From: an uncultured virus (IMG/VR IMGVR_UViG_3300044506_000040)
Taxonomy: Duplodnaviria > Heunggongvirae > Uroviricota > Caudoviricetes
IMG/VR virus record: IMGVR_UViG_3300044506_000040
Length of the DNA stretch: 57,570 nucleotides
Strand: one strand, 5' to 3'
This document shows, piece by piece, positions 10,138 through 55,846 of the stretch; position 1 is the stretch's first letter; the number at the start of each line of letters is the position of its first letter. The notes beneath the pieces were generated by a model, which saw only the letters and a list, made by a program, of their open reading frames with translations, was not told the DNA's origin and did not search any database. A program made the translations under genes and the position numbers.

Positions 10138-10225
10138 GGGGAGGTGCCCGAGAGGCTAAAGGGGGCAGACTGTAAATCTGTTGGGCTTAGGTCCTACATT
10201 GGTTCGAATCCAATCTTCCCCACCA
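10138..10225 (+). tRNA. tRNA-Tyr(GTA)
   Basis: Cloverleaf, long variable arm, CTGTAAA loop, encoded CCA. Confidence 0.95.
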
Positions 10226-10238
10226 GAATTCGTAGTAC

Positions 10239-10314
10239 GGCGATGTAGCTCAGTCGGTAGAGCAGCGGGATCATAATCCGTTGGTCGTCAGTTCGATTCT
10301 GACCATCGCCACCA
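10239..10314 (+). tRNA. tRNA-Met(CAT), elongator type (Ile2 not excluded)
   Basis: GGCGATG/CATCGCC acceptor, CAT anticodon, CCA. Confidence 0.9.
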
Positions 10315-10330
10315 GTCGTCTTTGTAGTTC

Positions 10331-10407
10331 CGGAGTTTAGCGCAGCCCGGTAGCGCACCTGATTTGGGATCAGGGGGTCGTAGGTTCGAATCCTACAATT
10401 CCGACCA
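10331..10407 (+). tRNA. tRNA-Pro(TGG)
   Basis: CGGAGTT acceptor, TTTGGGA loop, CCA. Confidence 0.95.
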
Positions 10408-10425
10408 GTATTTGTTGTGTCAGTG

Positions 10426-10511
10426 GAAGACGTGGCCGAGCGGCTGAAGGCACCAGATTGCAAACCTGGCGGCGAAAGCCCACGTGGGTTCGAATCCCAT
10501 CGTCTTCTCCA
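10426..10511 (+). tRNA. tRNA with GCA (Cys) anticodon and long variable arm
   Basis: GAAGACG/CGTCTTC, U73, TTGCAAA loop, variable arm GGC-GAAA-GCC. Confidence 0.85.
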
Positions 10512-10526
10512 TTGAATTGTTTCAAT

Positions 10527-10604
10527 CCCGCGGTAGCTCAGTCTGGTAGAGCGGCCACCTCGAATGGTGGTGTGTCGTTGGTTCAAATCCAACCCAAGGG
10601 GCCA
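10527..10604 (+). tRNA. aberrant tRNA (8-nt anticodon loop CTCGAATG, two acceptor mismatches)
   Basis: Canonical D and T arms and CCA; identity unresolved. Confidence 0.65.
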
Positions 10605-10628
10605 AGTTTCAACTAGACATGCTTAGGT

Positions 10629-10705
10629 GTGGCCATAGCTCAGATTGGCAGAGCATCGGGATGTGGCCCCGAGGGTCCCGGGTTCGATTCCCGGTGGTCA
10701 CCCCT
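10629..10705 (+). tRNA. tRNA-His(GTG), lacking encoded G-1 and CCA
   Basis: GTGGCCA/TGGTCAC, C73, ATGTGGC loop; ends CCT. Confidence 0.85.
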
Positions 10706-10727
10706 AAGGTGTTTGGTGTTTCACAGT

Positions 10728-10807
10728 GGTGCTGTTCTTCTAGAGGCCTAGGATGCTGGTTCGTGCACGAATCGGAGACAGGGGTTCAAATCCCCTACGG
10801 CGCCCCA
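10728..10807 (+). tRNA. aberrant tRNA: Glu-type body with extended anticodon arm
   Basis: TCTAGAGGCCTAGGA D-arm and AGGGGTTCAAATCCCCT T-arm typical of tRNA-Glu; 20-nt anticodon arm; CCA. Confidence 0.7.
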
Positions 10808-10825
10808 CTTTCTTTTTCCTTCAGT

Positions 10826-10909
10826 GCGGGGCTCCGGTAGGAACTGGGCTATCGTGAATGCATGCATCGATAGTTTGGTGGTGGTTCAAAGCCACTTGCA
10901 GCCCGCTCC
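10826..10909 (+). pseudogene. degenerate tRNA-like remnant
   Basis: T-arm GTGG-TTCAAAG-CCAC, paired ends GCGGG/CCCGC, CTATCG/CGATAG stem; no proper D arm. Confidence 0.4.
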
Positions 10910-10917
10910 CCTTTTCT

Positions 10918-11007
10918 AGAGAGATGTCCGAGCGGTTTAAAGAGTCGCCCTGCTAAGGCGATGTGTGGGCAACTGCACCAAGGGTTCGAATCCCTTTCTC
11001 TCTGCCA
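10918..11007 (+). tRNA. tRNA-Ser(GCT)
   Basis: AGAGAGA/TCTCTCT, long variable arm, G73, CCA. Confidence 0.95.
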
Positions 11008-29962: not shown

Positions 29963-30190
29963 ATGGTAGACGCAGTCAATGCAGTTACTGGATTCGTACC
30001 CTTCTCGGAGCTTATGCGAGAAGCCCAAGAACGCGACAGACGTGAACGGCAAAGCAGGCCTTACAAGCCTAACGCTACGCCGGTCCCCACGCCTGTCGTG
30101 CCTTCGTCGATTGTTCAGATCTCCCAGCGTGCCCGGGACCTCTATGCGGCTGAGCAGACTGCTCGGCCGACTTGGGACTGGGACATGTGA
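29963..30190 (+). CDS. hypothetical protein
   Basis: GAGGTG RBS; terminator 30227-30252 follows. Confidence 0.65.
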   Translation: MVDAVNAVTGFVPFSELMREAQERDRRERQSRPYKPNATPVPTPVVPSSIVQISQRARDLYAAEQTARPTWDWDM

Positions 30191-30314
30191 ACGAATTGCT
30201 CCGAGTGCCGAACGCACTCTTTTATGGGGGACCTTCGGGTCCCTCTTTTTTTGCTGTCTTTTTTTCTTGTTGATTTCTATTGTGTGTTGTATAACCTTTT
30301 GGAGAACCAACAAC

Positions 30315-30749
30315 ATGTGGCAAAAGCTCTGGGCCCGCATTGGCCCGTATGTAACCCTGCAAGTCCTGGTGAAGTTCATTCAAGAAGAACTCTCGATGGT
30401 CTTCGCGTTCATCGCCAAAGTCTGTGGTGACATGTTCACCAGCTGGAACGGTGACGTCGACCCGGCGCGTCTGATCCCGTACCTGCTGTGCGGGTTGTTC
30501 GGTGTGTTCTTCCTGTGGTTCACCTACCTCGACACGATCTGGCATCACTCGTTTAACAGCATGGCGTTCAGTGCTGGGGCGGTGTCACTCGGTGCGCAGT
30601 TCGTGGCAGCTGCCGGCGGGGTGCGCCTGAAGCAAAGCTCGGAAATCCCGATGACGCCGGACGACCATCAACACCTCGGGGCGCGCAAGCCCAAGTCGCT
30701 GGTGCGGCGCGTGGTGCAAGGCGCGGTCAATGGGGCCATGGATAAGTAA
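30315..30749 (+). CDS. membrane protein (holin-like topology possible)
   Basis: GGAG RBS; two to three TM segments, basic C-terminus. Confidence 0.6.
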   Translation: MWQKLWARIGPYVTLQVLVKFIQEELSMVFAFIAKVCGDMFTSWNGDVDPARLIPYLLCGLFGVFFLWFTYLDTIWHHSFNSMAFSAGAVSLGAQFVAAAGGVRLKQSSEIPMTPDDHQHLGARKPKSLVRRVVQGAVNGAMDK

Positions 30750-30788
30750 AAACCGCACGACGGCTATTCTATGCGGGGAGAAATCCCT

Positions 30789-31327
30789 GGTAGTACCGTT
30801 GATACTGTCTGAAGAGGAGTGCAAGTCTCCAGTGCCTCTGATTGTGGTCTTTACCACGGTCGGGGAACGCTCAGGTGAAACGCCTGCGAAAGTGCGGCAC
30901 GAGATCCTTATCTCGGTGGTGGTTGTTGGTGTGATGGGCTTGACAACAGACTGTCGTGAGACAGCCTAGAGCCCACAGGGTGCCGTGGGGGTACCAGATA
31001 CACTGCTTCCTCTTTAGCTGTTCTCACAGTCTATGGTCTGATACCGATTAAAAGACCACGTGTGTTTGCCCACACGCAAAGGGTTTCTTGCTGGCCCGAC
31101 TGCCTATTCGGTACGCCCAGTGGATCTGGGAAGTTGTACTCTGGTTGAGCGTTGCTCCTAGAACGCAGCCTGCTGAGGATTATCCGTTCGGCGCATCAGT
31201 GTATCGGTGCGAGCGTCAACGCTAGTGTGCGTTTGGGTACAGTAGAAGTCTATTGAAACGGTCGTCTCCCCGGATGAGATAGATGAACGCTGTACCACGG
31301 CCGTCCTCAGTGGGCTGTGGCATTACC
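30789..31327 (+). ncRNA. candidate ~540-nt ornate structured ncRNA
   Basis: ORF-free; paired ends, 16-bp helix, 8- and 9-bp long-range pairings, GNRA/UUCG hairpins, 3' U-tract. Confidence 0.7.
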
Positions 31328-31355
31328 CCTTTTTTTATTTTGCTAGCTTAAACAA

Positions 31356-31940
31356 ATGACACAAGACCTGGCAGCATTGGTACAAGTCTACGACGATGTA
31401 CCGATCCCTCAGGCGCTGCGCGGGGAGTTGCAACGTCTGACGCAACAGCCCATTTGGGCTAACAACTGGACCACCAATAACTACGCGTATAAGAACTGGG
31501 GCGCGTTGTTTATGGGAGGCTCGGACGCTACTGACTTGGGGAACTGCGAAGCAGAACTCTACGCAGATCGGCGCACCTACCTCCTCGGTAAGTTCTGGGC
31601 GATCATCAAACAGAAGTACTTGCCCGAGCATGAACTCTTGCGCTTTTGGGCGCTGAGCTTCACGCAAGGCATGGATGGTCACGTCCACATCGATGGCAAA
31701 GAAGAGGATTACTACACGACGCTTCTCTATATCCACAATGAGTGGCAAGCTCATTGGGGCGGAGAGCTCATGTACTTCACGCAAGATGAGTCGGATATCA
31801 TCAAGGTGATTGAGCCTAAGCCACTTCGCGTCATCATCTCGCCCGGCCACATCCCTCACCGCATCAGCCCCCCAACACGAGAGACTGACAAGATGCGTGG
31901 TGTGCTCGGTTTTCGTTCGAGGAAAAGAAGAGAAACATGA
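31356..31940 (+). CDS. 2OG-Fe(II) oxygenase (prolyl-hydroxylase-like)
   Basis: HxD (HID), WGGE, distal H (IPH), R (MRG). Confidence 0.9.
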   Translation: MTQDLAALVQVYDDVPIPQALRGELQRLTQQPIWANNWTTNNYAYKNWGALFMGGSDATDLGNCEAELYADRRTYLLGKFWAIIKQKYLPEHELLRFWALSFTQGMDGHVHIDGKEEDYYTTLLYIHNEWQAHWGGELMYFTQDESDIIKVIEPKPLRVIISPGHIPHRISPPTRETDKMRGVLGFRSRKRRET

Positions 31941-32560
31941 AAGCAATGGGTAGTTTGATGGATGAGGTGCACGTCTATGACGACATCATCCCGAAAGACA
32001 TTCAGGCCCGCTTGGCAGAGACCGTCAAGAAGGAACTCTGGACCTATAGCTGGCAGACCGCGCCCTGGGACGAGTATCCCGTCTGGGGCCGCAGCGTGGC
32101 GAATCCGTTGCGCGGCAACCAAAACGCAGAAGAGAACCTCATGCGTGACGGTCACCAGATCGACTCGGCTGAAATCTGGAAGCTCTTTACGAGCACCTTC
32201 CTGAAAGGCCACAGTCTCATGCGCGCCTTCGTGATTGGGTTTCATCACGGCTGCGAAGGCTATGCGCACGGTGACAACACTGATCCTGAGGATCAGGGTA
32301 AGATGGGCAATGGCCTGAACCTGACGAACTATCGTTCGACGATTATCTTTGCCTTCGATGAGTGGCAAGCTCATTGGGGTGGCGAGATGGTCTTCTACGA
32401 TCGTGAGATGAATGACATCATCTGCGCGGTGGAACCGAAACCGTTCCGCGTGATCACGTTCCCGGGACTGCTGCCCCACAAGCCGAACGGGCCGACCCGT
32501 GAAGCTCCGCAATACCTTCCGCTGCTCTCGTTCCGCTCGAAGCAGATCCTCCGCATGTAA
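31937..32560 (+). CDS. 2OG-Fe(II) oxygenase paralog lacking the 2OG-binding Arg
   Basis: HGD, WGGE, LPH; Leu at the Arg position. Confidence 0.85.
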   Translation: MKAMGSLMDEVHVYDDIIPKDIQARLAETVKKELWTYSWQTAPWDEYPVWGRSVANPLRGNQNAEENLMRDGHQIDSAEIWKLFTSTFLKGHSLMRAFVIGFHHGCEGYAHGDNTDPEDQGKMGNGLNLTNYRSTIIFAFDEWQAHWGGEMVFYDREMNDIICAVEPKPFRVITFPGLLPHKPNGPTREAPQYLPLLSFRSKQILRM

Positions 32561-32570
32561 GAAGAGAACC

Positions 32571-33200
32571 ATGAACCAAGCAATTCAAACGAAGCACGCT
32601 GACCTCATCGCCCGCATTCAGATCCATGACGGACTGATCCCGGCTGAGCTCCAGAACGCCATCGCCGCGCTCATGAAGCAGCCGCGCTGGGCCTATGGCT
32701 GGAAGAGCAACGCCGAGAAGGACAAGTACAGCTTCTGGCACACGCACTTCGCCGGTGGCGACCTCAATAGCCGCGTGAACTGTGCGGATCAGCTGCGCCA
32801 AAAGCCGGAGAACTTCTCCGTGTATCAAGTGTGGGATCTGCTCAGCAAGACGATCCTGCAAGGCCACGAGCCGCTGCGCGCGTATGGCAACGCGCACACG
32901 TTCGGCACGGAAGGCTACATCCACGTCGACAACCGCGACACCGAGAACTACTTCTCGACGATCATCTACACGAACCCGGACTGGAAGGCGCCGTGGGGTG
33001 GTGAGACGCTGTTCTACTCGCTCGACGAGAAGGACATCATCAAGGCTGCCGCAGCGGTTCCGTTCCGCATCGTGACGTTCCCGGGGCACATCCCGCACAA
33101 GGCGAATGCGCCGGCGCGTGACTGCCCGCATCTGCGCACGGCACTCGTGTTCAAGTCGCACGTGGGTGCCAAGCCCGTCATGCCGACGGAAGCTGCGTGA
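32571..33200 (+). CDS. 2OG-Fe(II) oxygenase (prolyl-hydroxylase-like)
   Basis: RAYGNAHTFG..GYIHVD, WGGET, IPH, LRTALVFK. Confidence 0.92.
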   Translation: MNQAIQTKHADLIARIQIHDGLIPAELQNAIAALMKQPRWAYGWKSNAEKDKYSFWHTHFAGGDLNSRVNCADQLRQKPENFSVYQVWDLLSKTILQGHEPLRAYGNAHTFGTEGYIHVDNRDTENYFSTIIYTNPDWKAPWGGETLFYSLDEKDIIKAAAAVPFRIVTFPGHIPHKANAPARDCPHLRTALVFKSHVGAKPVMPTEAA

Positions 33201-52983: not shown

Positions 52984-53568
52984 ATGATGACACCTGCCCG
53001 ACCGATCAAGAAGGTTGTCCTGGTCCCGTACTGGGTGCAGGAAGCCCTCGCTCGGCACCACTGCGGTCTGCAAGACGCGCTGAACTTCGATCAACTGGTG
53101 CGCTTTATTAACACCAATGATTTGATTGGATATCTCTCGCTTCAGGATTACCTCCTGGAGCTCGCTGGTTACGAGGTGCACGGCAACGTCCTCGAAACCA
53201 AGTGGAACGAATCCGCTTGTTCGGACAGTTCCAAAACACTTTTGACGCAAACTATTATTCCGCTGGCTCACAACCCGGAGTACTTGGAAGACGTCAGCGA
53301 CCGGTTGTTCTCGCAGAATTCTGTGTGTGACCGACTGCCGCACCACGAAAATGCCTTTAATGTATATGACAGCACTCATGATGCTGCCTGCATCGTCATT
53401 AATCCGGGGTTCTTCACCGAAGAAGCCGGCTCTGACGGGCATCGTGCGGCACTCATCGTCGCAGTGTTAAAAGTATTGTATGCGTACAACGCGTACCACG
53501 AGGTGGCTCACACCCCTCTGTTCAAGCGTTATCTTGAATTGTTGGCTAAGAAAGAGCTGACGGTTTAA
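52984..53568 (+). CDS. conserved jumbo-phage protein between DnaB and capsid genes
   Basis: Syntenic position. Confidence 0.65.
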   Translation: MMTPARPIKKVVLVPYWVQEALARHHCGLQDALNFDQLVRFINTNDLIGYLSLQDYLLELAGYEVHGNVLETKWNESACSDSSKTLLTQTIIPLAHNPEYLEDVSDRLFSQNSVCDRLPHHENAFNVYDSTHDAACIVINPGFFTEEAGSDGHRAALIVAVLKVLYAYNAYHEVAHTPLFKRYLELLAKKELTV

Positions 53569-53623: not shown

Positions 53624-55846
53624 ATGACCGCTCTGTTTGCAAACAAGGGTCGCATCGGCACTTCGGTCGCTTCGCCGGTCGACACCCTGGTGGGCGCCCT
53701 GCGCCAAGAAATGAACCACAGCGGCGCTGCATTCGCGTCGCGTCAAATCTCGCAAGCCGCCATCTCGATGGAAGCGATCGATTCGTCGCTCACGCGCGAA
53801 CTGAACGACAGCCTCGAAGGCCTGAACGCTTCGCTCGAGAGCATCCTGAAAGAACACGGCATGCACGACCTGACGGCCGCGCAGCGCAACGCTGGTCTGG
53901 CTGCGATGGCGCTCACGGGCGACATGGCCGGCTTCCTGCACGCGGGCATCAAGCACGACCAGGTTTCGACCGAGTCGATGAAGTTCATCGTGCCGGGCGG
54001 CGAAGATCGCATGTTCGATCGTATCAAGCCGGCGCTGGAAGCGTACGACGAGAAGGAAAACAAGAACGCGGTCGTGTACTCGGTCGCGTACAACCTTCAA
54101 GCTGCGCGCCAAGACGAATTCGGTGAAGCGTTCTTCCCGACCGTCGTCGTGACCCCCGACCAAGTCGGCTACACGGTCTCGATCCGCCTGATCGAAGTGT
54201 ACAACGAACCGAAGCGTCCGATCTCGGGTGCTCCGTCGCAGAACTTCGGCCGTCGCAACATCGTGCAAGCGGTGATCGACCCGACCATCCTGCGCAACGA
54301 CCAGACGAAGATCGTCCCGGTCTACCGCACGGAAAGCGAAGGCTACTTCGTCACGAACGCGCAAGTCGCGCCGTACGCAGTGCAGCTGACGGACAACACG
54401 CAGATCACGACGGCGCCGCTCGCAGTCGGCCAGAAGTTCTCGCTGCTCGGCCTGTCGCAGACGGAAGCCCTGCTCGAAACGGGTATCCTCGACATCACCG
54501 ACGCGATCGACACGCAACTCGCGCTCGACGCAGTGTACGTGCAGTTCACGGGCACGGTTGGCGGCACGCCGACGACCGAAGTCGTGAAGTTCAACACGCG
54601 TCAGCTGCCGCTGGCTGTGTTCAACTACGCTCCGCAGAACGTCTACCGTCAGATGAACCTCCAGTTCAAGACGGAAACGCTGCTGATCAACGCGAACACG
54701 ACGCTGGCTGACGGCGGCGCATCGCAACTGCTCGCACCGCTGGTCTCGGGCAACTACGAAGCGCGCTTCGGCTTCTCGATGTTCGGTTCGGTGAACCTCG
54801 AACTCGGCGACACGGAAATCAACACGTCGTCGGTCGGCCTGACCTCGATCAAGAACTCGAGCGACGTCGCTCTGGGTCTCGGCTCGGGCACGGGTGCAAC
54901 GCTGGCAGCGATCTTCACGGGCGCGACCGTTATCGGTTACGACCTCGACGCTCGTCGCACGAACTCGAACCGTCGTCAACGTGGTCAGCTGCTGAACACG
55001 AACTTCTACAACCAGATCTACACGGTGCCGCTCCTGGCCCCGATCACGATCCCGCGTCCGATGCAAGTCGGCGACGCGAACGACTCGTCGGATCTGGCAG
55101 CACTCATCACGGCAACGCGCATCCGCACGTCGAACGCAGCCGTGGACGAACTGCTCCGCATTCAGGACCTGCTCGCTGAAACGACCAGCGCCCTGAACAC
55201 GACGGCCACGCCGAACAGCGCTGCCGATACGCCGGAAATCCTGGGCGTCTCGCGCTTCATCGTTCAGCCGGCTTACATCGAGAAGAACCTCGAGATCGAC
55301 TCGTCGACGGACTCGCTGAGCGCGCATCAACGCGCGGCCGACATCCAGGCGACGCTGGTCAACTGCCTGCGCGACATCGCGTACACGCTGTACGTCCAGT
55401 CGGGCTACAAGGCAGCCTCGGATGCGCTCGCTGGTGGCGTTGGCCCGGTGCCGACGGTCATCATCGGTACGGATCCGTACATCGCACGTTACCTGATGGT
55501 GACGGGCGACCTTCGCACGCTGGGCGGTCAGTTCGACGTCAAGATCGTGTCGACGCTGAACGAGCGCATGGCTGGCAAGATCGTCATGTCCTTCGGCGAC
55601 GAATCGAGCGCGAAGGCTGGCACGCCGAACCCGCTGCACTTCGGTAACATGGCATGGAAGCCGGAAGTCACGGTCGTCCTGCCGATGATCCGCAACGGCG
55701 CACAGTCGAAGGAACTCACGGTCCAGCCGTCGTTCCTGCACATCTGCAACCTGCCGGTTCTGGGTGTGATCAACGTGTCGGGTATCAGCGCCATTGCGTA
55801 CAGCAAGGTGCCGGTCGAGTTCGACACGGTGACGCAGCTGCCGTAA
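53624..55846 (+). CDS. major capsid protein (phiKZ gp120-like)
   Basis: 740 aa, ALE-AYDE maturation site, RQDEFGEAFFPTVVV, N.NRRQRG, extreme codon bias. Confidence 0.93.
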   Translation: MTALFANKGRIGTSVASPVDTLVGALRQEMNHSGAAFASRQISQAAISMEAIDSSLTRELNDSLEGLNASLESILKEHGMHDLTAAQRNAGLAAMALTGDMAGFLHAGIKHDQVSTESMKFIVPGGEDRMFDRIKPALEAYDEKENKNAVVYSVAYNLQAARQDEFGEAFFPTVVVTPDQVGYTVSIRLIEVYNEPKRPISGAPSQNFGRRNIVQAVIDPTILRNDQTKIVPVYRTESEGYFVTNAQVAPYAVQLTDNTQITTAPLAVGQKFSLLGLSQTEALLETGILDITDAIDTQLALDAVYVQFTGTVGGTPTTEVVKFNTRQLPLAVFNYAPQNVYRQMNLQFKTETLLINANTTLADGGASQLLAPLVSGNYEARFGFSMFGSVNLELGDTEINTSSVGLTSIKNSSDVALGLGSGTGATLAAIFTGATVIGYDLDARRTNSNRRQRGQLLNTNFYNQIYTVPLLAPITIPRPMQVGDANDSSDLAALITATRIRTSNAAVDELLRIQDLLAETTSALNTTATPNSAADTPEILGVSRFIVQPAYIEKNLEIDSSTDSLSAHQRAADIQATLVNCLRDIAYTLYVQSGYKAASDALAGGVGPVPTVIIGTDPYIARYLMVTGDLRTLGGQFDVKIVSTLNERMAGKIVMSFGDESSAKAGTPNPLHFGNMAWKPEVTVVLPMIRNGAQSKELTVQPSFLHICNLPVLGVINVSGISAIAYSKVPVEFDTVTQLP

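Follow-up and report, generated by a model that had tools for sequence, protein, structure and literature searches.

A gap without genes in the DNA of an uncultured tailed phage (IMG/VR record IMGVR_UViG_3300044506_000040, class Caudoviricetes; the stretch of 57,570 nucleotides (nt) that was analysed is called the window here) most likely encodes a conserved, folded RNA of about 540 bases that occurs in giant phages and has two parts, a 5' hammerhead ribozyme followed by a 3' domain. That the gap (30750-31355) holds a real, conserved RNA is nearly certain. Its + strand, on which both flanking genes also lie, has a minimum free energy (MFE) of -233.5 kcal/mol versus -208.7 +/- 6.8 kcal/mol for 100 dinucleotide shuffles (z = -3.66; none of the 100 folds as well), and the - strand reaches z = -2.0 against its shuffles. 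A preliminary description of the gap, made from its letters alone, found no credible open reading frame (ORF) there, and this is borne out. The longest ORF touching the gap (79 amino acids) begins within the upstream gene, the remainder are shorter than 50 amino acids, and a comparison of frames across homologues finds no stop-free frame common to them. What the preliminary description missed is the defining feature of the 5' part, an apparently complete hammerhead.

Relatives comprise about 27 records with the motif pair described below (from IMG/VR, Joint Genome Institute (JGI) metagenomes, one contig of a metagenome-assembled genome (MAG) and GenBank phages). Base pairs were counted in 17 distinct sequences, and Ralstonia phage RSF1, the L275 type and locus L280 were examined additionally. 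MAFFT alignments across clades (A1, A3) misalign the 3' strands of stem III and stem I, and pairs were counted by a script on motif-anchored positions. RNAalifold on clade A recovers the 3' domain, not the hammerhead junction.

Hammerhead core and extra hairpin

The gap and the elements of the putative ribozyme, including two hairpins called hp1 and hp2, are as follows.

30750-31355, + strand: gene-free gap, with the upstream stop codon at 30747-49 and the next start at 31356
30804-31030, + strand: whole putative hammerhead, from core letters and covarying stems
30804-30808, + strand: stem I 5' strand ACUGU, pairing with 31026-30
30809-30815, + strand: core strand CUGAAGA (C3 to A9, with N7 = A), matching the invariant CUGANGA
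30816-30830, + strand: stem II (hp1), 4 base pairs (bp) GGAG/CUCC and a 7-nt T-loop-like loop UGCAAGU, from pairing and covariation
30831-30871, + strand: insert of variable length separating hp1 from hp2, folded in the window into a 13-bp hairpin around GUGGU-CUUU-ACCAC
30872-30887, + strand: hp2, CAGG-UGAAACG-CCUG and a conserved C, between stem II and G12
30888-30891, + strand: G12, A13, A14 and A15.1, with the invariant GAA
30892-31023, + strand: stem III with a 132-nt inserted domain that holds hairpins at 30900-15 and CUGUC-GUGA-GACAG (30951-64)
AGUGCGGC (30891-98) / GCUGUUCU (31017-24), + strand: core-proximal pairs of stem III, covarying among members
31024-31025, + strand: U16.1 and C17, with the predicted cut between C31025 and A31026
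31026-31030, + strand: stem I 3' strand ACAGU, pairing with 30804-08, and 5' end of the predicted 3' product

The 5' part very probably carries a genuine hammerhead motif. The elements follow the same order in every member: a 5-nt strand, CUGANGA, hp1, a variable insert, hp2, C-GAA-A, a helix, U, a base other than G, and the complement of the 5-nt strand. Positions 30809-30815 were identified by C3-U4-G5-A6-N7-G8-A9, which we take to be the consensus of the hammerhead core. CUGANGA is present in all 17 sequences, and RSF1, the L275 type and L280 have it too; its sole variable letter is N7 (U in 14 of the 17, A in two and C in one), and the CUGAAGA of the window departs from the majority solely at this free position. 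GAA and the C before it are likewise invariant (17/17), the A15.1-U16.1 pair occurs in 16 of 17 sequences, and position H17 is C in ten, A in six, U in one and never G, the window having C31025.

The two stems that close the core covary. Stem I has exactly 5 bp in all members, with three to five pair types per column, double changes in all five columns and 53 of 55 cells paired in the 11 distinct rows (shuffle mean 27.1), and stem III has 58 of 70 cells paired (shuffle mean 38.3); none of 500 shuffles reaches either count, although both counts are biased upward because the 3' partner, and with it the cleavage position, was picked by best pairing. A stricter search tried 392 positions per sequence for a closure with all five stem I pairs, U16.1, H17 and at least four of five stem III pairs. 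Such closures exist in 12 of the 17 sequences (13 positions overall), where by our own estimate chance would give about 0.08 per sequence, and the five other sequences have an internal mismatch. In the window exactly one of the 392 positions qualifies. RSF1 and the L275 type supply two more complete ribozymes. The insert carried by stem III ranges from 11 to 190 nt among members.

Stem II is formed by hp1, which begins directly after A9 and has all 68 of its stem cells paired. It is read as a 4-bp stem because its inner pairs covary and its outer pair, G:C in the 17 sequences, changes in a compensating manner to U:A in RSF1 and A:U in the L275 type. A one-pair stem II, between the G after the core and the C before GAAA, is ruled out, since in RSF1 and the L275 type the base that changes together with this G is the C after hp1. 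The hp1 loop reads U-(G/U)-C-(A/G)-A-G-U throughout and is closed by a G-C pair. In the T-loop consensus U1 and A5 are invariant, position 4 is a purine and two nucleotides trail, and the hp1 loop fits these letters.

A linker of 3-60 nt leads from hp1 to hp2, a 4-bp hairpin with 63 of 68 stem cells paired and a loop that reads U-G-N-A-A-N-G, again in keeping with the T-loop letters, in 16 of 17 sequences (that of Burkholderia phage FLC9 is one base short). Together the linker, hp2 and the conserved C place 19 to about 80 nt between the 3' strand of stem II and G12 in every member. The junction is therefore not a simple three-way junction but a four-helix variant of the hammerhead.

The loops of these two hairpins appear to be linked. 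Position 2 of the hp1 loop and position 6 of the hp2 loop occur as G:C (6 sequences), G:A (7) or U:G (7) and in no other combination, and the pair switches within clade A (in L264) as well as within clade C (L255 versus L014). Both positions had been left free in the gapped search patterns. They adjoin two invariant nucleotides, C3 of the hp1 loop and G7 of the hp2 loop. Because positions 2 and 6 covary, we infer that the two loops contact each other directly, much as the T-loop and the D-loop do in the elbow of tRNA, and the form with U:G plus C:G equals the pairs of that elbow. T-loop modules are known from the tRNA elbow, RNase P, T-box leaders and the ribosomal L1 stalk. The likeness to the tRNA elbow extends to the 7-nt loop with U1 and A5, the G-C closing pair and an invariant C facing an invariant G of the second loop beside a covarying pair. 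Unlike the elbow, the predicted contact joins two neighbouring hairpins inside a ribozyme, in reverse order and with no acceptor or anticodon arm, and it is deduced here from covariation. The covarying loop pair predicts the structure precisely enough for a test by mutation.

Type I hammerheads of bacteria and phages (Perreault et al. 2011, PMC3088659; Rfam hammerhead clan) share with this RNA the core CUGANGA, GAAA, the A15.1-U16.1 pair and an H17 other than G, and also three helices at the core, an open stem I and an intergenic phage site on the coding strand. The present RNA differs in that a T-loop caps its stem II, a fourth hairpin whose loop covaries with this T-loop lies before G12, and stem III can hold 100-190 nt. 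Known hammerheads have a contact between stem I and loop II, or a pseudoknot, and here something else stands in its place. Hammerheads are the small ribozymes that have been studied best. A search of the literature, as far as its excerpts extend, found no description of a hammerhead in which a T-loop caps stem II and the core holds a fourth hairpin, and the whole hairpin between stem II and G12 thus seems to be new.

Besides the bias in the stem counts, several observations weigh against an active hammerhead. Rfam hammerhead models give no match at E values up to 10 in the window, in FLC9 or in seven loci that include compact forms. Individual members deviate: L012 has G-C at 15.1-16.1, L280 is without a convincing closure, and stem III of the window has a U.U mismatch and G.U pairs beside the core. 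Many of the sequences are closely related and represent some 9-10 independent lineages. The fold constrained to the hammerhead (-206.0 kcal/mol) lies 24 kcal/mol above the MFE of -230.3 kcal/mol, in which the core strand (30809-30819) pairs instead with 31007-18, just before the 3' strand of stem III. The same 8 bp are possible in L005, where N7 has changed in compensation, and impossible in L009 and L264, and this alternative may be an inactive conformer (an off-state) or may have arisen by chance. The main doubt on activity comes from the whole hairpin inserted between stem II and G12, in the region of the catalytic core, because the insertions there reported in the Perreault et al. excerpts (PMC3088659) are of one or two bases only and mostly lower activity. 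The same text describes natural hammerheads that are active although their stem II has just one or two bp. On balance, active self-cleavage appears likely.

Other readings of these motifs were examined. A K-turn or C/D-box reading of CUGAUGA fails, the strands for the flanking helix not being complementary. Resemblances to group II domain 5, the P4 helix of RNase P, twister-sister, pistol and hatchet were dropped, as they have no Rfam match.

The 3' domain

Downstream of the predicted cut lies a second conserved domain, present in 13 of the 17 sequences and in RSF1, with the following parts.

31026-31319, + strand: 3' domain, from conserved letters and covarying helices
31131-31137, + strand: junction strand AAGUUGU, between hairpins CCCAG/CUGGG (before) and UCUGG/CUAGA (after)
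31164-31180, + strand: 5' strand of the long helix, with conserved base CGCAGCCUG (31164-72) and covarying outer part, from pairing and covariation
31184-31300, + strand: cap, in which CCGU/ACGG closes a three-hairpin junction that includes GGUACAG/CUGUACC (31236-42/31290-96), from comparison within clade A
31303-31319, + strand: 3' strand of the long helix (...UGGGCUGUG), with conserved UGGGNUGCG at 31311-19, from pairing and covariation

In the long helix nine columns are changed on both sides. In 13 homologues 219 of 273 cells are paired, versus 83-145 when the partners are slid, and the 12 distinct rows have pairs in 185 of 216 cells; none of 500 shuffles reaches either the paired count or the number of doubly changed columns. 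Its base is formed by CGCAGCCUG and UGGGNUGCG, within which RSF1 has changed a C-G pair to U-A. A G.A or G.G mismatch in this conserved base (31168/31315) is kept in 12 of 13 sequences, and the window alone has G-C there. The core of the long helix had been noticed in the preliminary description as a 16-bp helix (31165-80/31303-18), and it is confirmed by the homologues, with 16, 15, 13 and 14 of the 16 positions paired in the window, L005, L009 and L264, respectively.

AAGUUGU is identical in all 13 sequences with this domain and reads CAGUUGU in RSF1. The hairpins on both sides of it covary in clade A, to which this claim is limited, the automatic search for them in all clades being unreliable. 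The helix that closes the cap, CCGU/ACGG in the window, corresponds to GGUGU/ACACC in L005 and GGCGU/ACGCC in L009, and the inner cap helices also covary in clade A. One of these, GGUACAG/CUGUACC, was likewise proposed earlier, and it retains 7, 6, 6 and 3 of its seven pairs in the window, L005, L009 and L264, with two compensatory positions. The interior of the cap varies from about 50 nt in RSF1 to about 180 nt. A pairing of the leader GGGGAGA with the loop UCGUCUCC (31263-70) was rejected, the registers differing among clade-A members.

In the compact forms L014 and L255 just a 16-nt hairpin lies between stem I and AAGUUGU, so the invariant letters must adjoin the distal end of stem I. Distal stem I is the usual site of a tertiary contact in hammerheads. 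This arrangement suggests that AAGUUGU and the base of the long helix pack against the ribozyme, docking on its elbow cap. With AAGUUGU and CGCAGCCUG/UGGGNUGCG as its invariant letters, this domain may represent a functional RNA class that is new.

Several features of the preliminary description can be judged by the same homologues. The three local hairpins it named exist, and the stem of CUGUC-GUGA-GACAG is invariant in all four clade-A sequences; at the place of the hairpin at 30900-15, homologues have other hairpins. Three crossing pairings that it read as pseudoknots (30997-31005/31197-205, 30866-73/31146-53 and 30859-64/31095-100) retain only 0-5 standard pairs in three aligned homologues, and the second also conflicts with the conserved hp2 and a covarying hairpin. 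Its pairing of the two ends (30789-97/31319-27) does form eight of nine pairs in the window, but the duplex of leader and tail is no better than those made with shuffled tails, of which 70 of 200 do as well in the window, 11 of 200 in L005, 14 of 200 in L009 and more in the others. The pairing is conserved in at most three clade-A members.

Transcript, processing and alternatives

The proposed limits of the transcript are marked by three features.

30765-30775, + strand: leader motif TATTCTATGCG holding TATG (30770-73), a candidate phiKZ-type late promoter with start at G30773
30776-30787, + strand: leader hairpin GGGA-GAAA-UCCC, read from sequence
31320-31336, + strand: tail GCAUUACCCC followed by U7 (31330-36), a possible transcript 3' end

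The TATG at 30770, to which the preliminary description had already pointed, resembles the late promoter consensus of phiKZ, which in the excerpts of PMC4666361 is TATG with G as the start, and because of this resemblance a late start at G30773 is proposed. The pattern TAT/TAA-NN(N)-TATGCG followed by a hairpin recurs at the same place in L005, L009 and L264, where the hairpin keeps its position and differs in sequence. A point against the promoter is that TATNNTATG occurs twice in the window (elsewhere only at 53474) versus 1.04 times expected; because this count is near expectation, the promoter reading rests on conservation in four relatives. At the other end, the U-tract reported earlier is present as U7, and the terminator scan lists no site there; the tract is shared by the window and L005, not by L009 or L264 (two of four clade-A members). 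These signals point weakly to a late transcript that would begin at G30773 and end in the U7 run.

The reading that we regard as most likely, with good though not high confidence, is that of a dedicated late transcript in two parts, a self-cutting four-helix hammerhead and a conserved 3' domain. The phage would transcribe 30773-31336 late as an RNA of its own. The first part (30804-31030), a type I hammerhead with an open stem I, would cut its own chain after C31025 and so release a predicted 5' product of about 253 nt with a 2',3'-cyclic phosphate end and a predicted 3' product of about 310 nt that starts with a 5'-hydroxyl. The elbow-like contact of hp1 and hp2 probably clamps the active fold, and the invariant letters of the second part (31026-31319) may pack on the ribozyme. 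The cut would fix the 5' end of the 3' domain without a host nuclease. If the phages transcribe inside a shell that excludes host enzymes, self-processing RNAs would make sense. A broader proposal, that a new four-helix hammerhead class with an elbow mimic and a docked new RNA domain forms one self-matured RNA machine of nucleus-forming and other jumbo phages, its elbow possibly read by tRNA-handling factors, is tentative.

The element could instead be a cis-acting 5' untranslated region, in which the ribozyme and the 3' domain control the genes behind them (oxygenases), for example as a self-cleaving switch that responds to a ligand or factor. We consider this unlikely, although it would fit the arrangement in clade B and L264, where the next ribosome site and start codon come directly after the 3' domain without a U-tract, and a 2-oxoglutarate (2OG)-Fe(II) oxygenase gene follows in the window, L005 and L264. 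The genes downstream vary among clades, however: gp132 of FLC9 is unrelated to the oxygenases of the window, L014 has more noncoding sequence and then another gene, and PaBG has tRNAs. The U7 run after the RNA in the window and L005 also speaks against a leader, as does the lack of any match to a known riboswitch aptamer in Rfam.

A core that serves as a scaffold and does not cut would leave an uncut ornate RNA, as is supposed for the multimeric RNA particles of ROOL and GOLLD. The extra hairpin adjoining the core and a hammerhead fold that is not the thermodynamic optimum would agree with this, and the size and phage context resemble those of ROOL (mean 581 nt, often in prophages and near tRNAs, in the excerpts of PMC5737381). 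Such a role is nevertheless improbable, because a scaffold would not require invariant catalytic letters: all catalytic nucleotides are invariant across deep divergence, the free N7 varies and H17 is never G. There is also no similarity to ROOL or GOLLD in sequence or by model. The kinship to these RNAs that had been suggested in the preliminary description is not supported by cmscan, which finds nothing relevant among 4227 Rfam families at E values up to 10 in the window and seven homologous loci; ROOL, GOLLD, OLE, RNase P, transfer-messenger RNA (tmRNA) and group I/II introns are unmatched, and only chance-level rows for small nucleolar and small RNAs appear. ROOL and GOLLD, in the excerpts of Weinberg et al. 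(2017, PMC5737381), are like the present RNA in having about 400-700 nt and multi-stem junctions and in being phage-borne, sometimes beside tRNA genes. They differ in that no motifs are held in common and in that the present RNA belongs to phiKZ-like and other jumbo phages of Proteobacteria from soil and contains a predicted self-cleaving ribozyme, of which no ROOL or GOLLD example is described in the literature excerpts. What holds of the earlier interpretation is thus a large, conserved, structured noncoding RNA of a phiKZ-like jumbo phage outside all catalogued families, and its pseudoknots, paired ends and ROOL/GOLLD kinship are not supported.

The elbow-like contact also raises the idea of tRNA mimicry, in which the RNA, or its 5' fragment with the cyclic phosphate, acts as a decoy or ligand for elbow readers such as RNase P, tRNA-modifying enzymes, tRNA-cleaving defence nucleases or RNA-repair sensors. 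Hp1 does resemble a T arm, with its G-C closing pair and a loop of U-U-C-R-A-G-U in seven lineages, the G-G or N-G of hp2 covaries with the hp1 loop, and the RNA lies in or beside tRNA genes in several phages (L265, PaBG, L008). There is little probability in this function, however. ARAGORN finds no tRNA gene in 30600-31500 and none inside the element in 12 homologous loci, the Rfam tRNA model has no match in the element, the order of the hairpins is reversed relative to tRNA, the tRNA cluster of the window is 20 kb away, and no conserved partner protein lies beside the RNA.

The view that the gap is no RNA gene at all, but a protein gene in decay, an intron or a mobile element, has nothing in its favour except the missing ORF. 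It is extremely improbable in view of compensatory base-pair changes in at least five helices, homologues without a common reading frame, the lack of group I intron, group II intron, tmRNA or RNase P matches in Rfam, and the single copy per genome.

Distribution and genomic setting

A search with the membrane protein encoded upstream of the gap led to Burkholderia phage FLC9, on which a literature search found no paper. In its genome, 2 kb beyond the membrane-protein homologue, lies a gap of 508 nt that is unannotated and has a fold z score of -3.17. Permissive blastn of the two gaps gives one 23-nt match, which contains CUGAWGAG followed by a hairpin whose 7-nt loop, UGCAAGU, is the same in both and whose stems differ (GAG/CUC versus CCG/CGG). 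The window and FLC9 thus have a 19-nt motif with a covarying hairpin in common. A scan of IMG/VR for this motif gives 11 matches, mostly on contigs of 243-323 kb; ten have the full ribozyme and one (L015) is a chance match, and 10 of the 11 also have the second motif, GGUGNAANGCC..CGAAA. Looser gapped patterns add further members, four new compact ones among them, in JGI metagenomes, in IMG/VR and on a single MAG contig, and short blastn queries add Pseudomonas phage PaBG and RSF1. Three soil DNA runs yield one more distant relative (run X4) with few changes and an unaltered AAGUUGU. The RNA is present as a single copy in all five whole related jumbo-phage genomes, and the reversed control pattern gives no match.

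Ordinary similarity searches are less productive. The elements of the window, L257 and L253 have no blastn match in GenBank phages, and that of L014 matches only over the 31-nt core, in FLC9. Searches with flanking proteins (tblastn, related loci) return nothing beyond the same phage, FLC9 and some distant oxygenases of cyanophages. Gapped pattern scans for the 3' domain, from whose listed matches 160 loci were taken, add L051 as the sole real one, the rest being chance matches.

The cultured phages with the RNA are FLC9, RSF1 and PaBG, the last having the ribozyme part only, and direct tests are therefore possible in them. In RSF1 (L273, 768-1344) an unannotated 576-nt gap holds the whole RNA, compactly built, and behind it come a G+C-rich hairpin and a T run. 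In four lineages (PaBG, L008, L012 and L272) the same ribozyme is followed by different noncoding sequence, and for this reason the ribozyme is regarded as a module of its own.

Some loci have further features. PaBG (L274) has 1.5 kb without annotated genes within a tRNA cluster (735-2229), where a hammerhead of the same kind lies at about 1496-1582; a second T-loop-like hairpin, preceded by CUGGAUGAG, occurs about 25 nt behind it. The four-helix hammerhead of L272 (846-955) is on a 28-kb contig that was binned as a Thaumarchaeota MAG. In L014 (1600-1860) and L255 (1150-1420) a second conserved, G+C-rich and apparently noncoding segment of about 250 nt lies between the RNA and the next gene.

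The neighbours of the RNA differ by clade, and their comparison finds no protein partner conserved beside it. In the window three tandem paralogous 2OG-Fe(II) oxygenase genes lie behind it (31356-33200, + strand; Pfam PF13640; PHROG 274, labelled 'DNA endonuclease V'). An unrelated gene follows in FLC9, tRNA genes surround the RNA in PaBG, a tRNA-Asn gene ends 10 nt before stem I in L265, and a tRNA gene is nearby in L008. At the gathering threshold the only Rfam matches in the window are seven tRNAs, in a cluster at 10138-11004 (+ strand).

An IMG/VR record that matches the window at 100% identity places it in a phage of 324 kb. The major head protein of the window is of the phiKZ type (PF25620, E = 4e-190). 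About 150 nt before its gene (53624-55846), TATTGTATGCG and then a small hairpin occur at 53474-53484 (+ strand), possibly a late promoter of the same kind as the leader of the RNA. Upstream of the RNA, two terminator-like hairpins with T runs (30203-30245, + strand) lie within a 256-amino-acid ORF (29979-30749), and its FLC9 homologue aligns only from about 30360. Because of these internal hairpins and the start of the homologue, the ORF is probably two units, with the true upstream gene starting near 30360.

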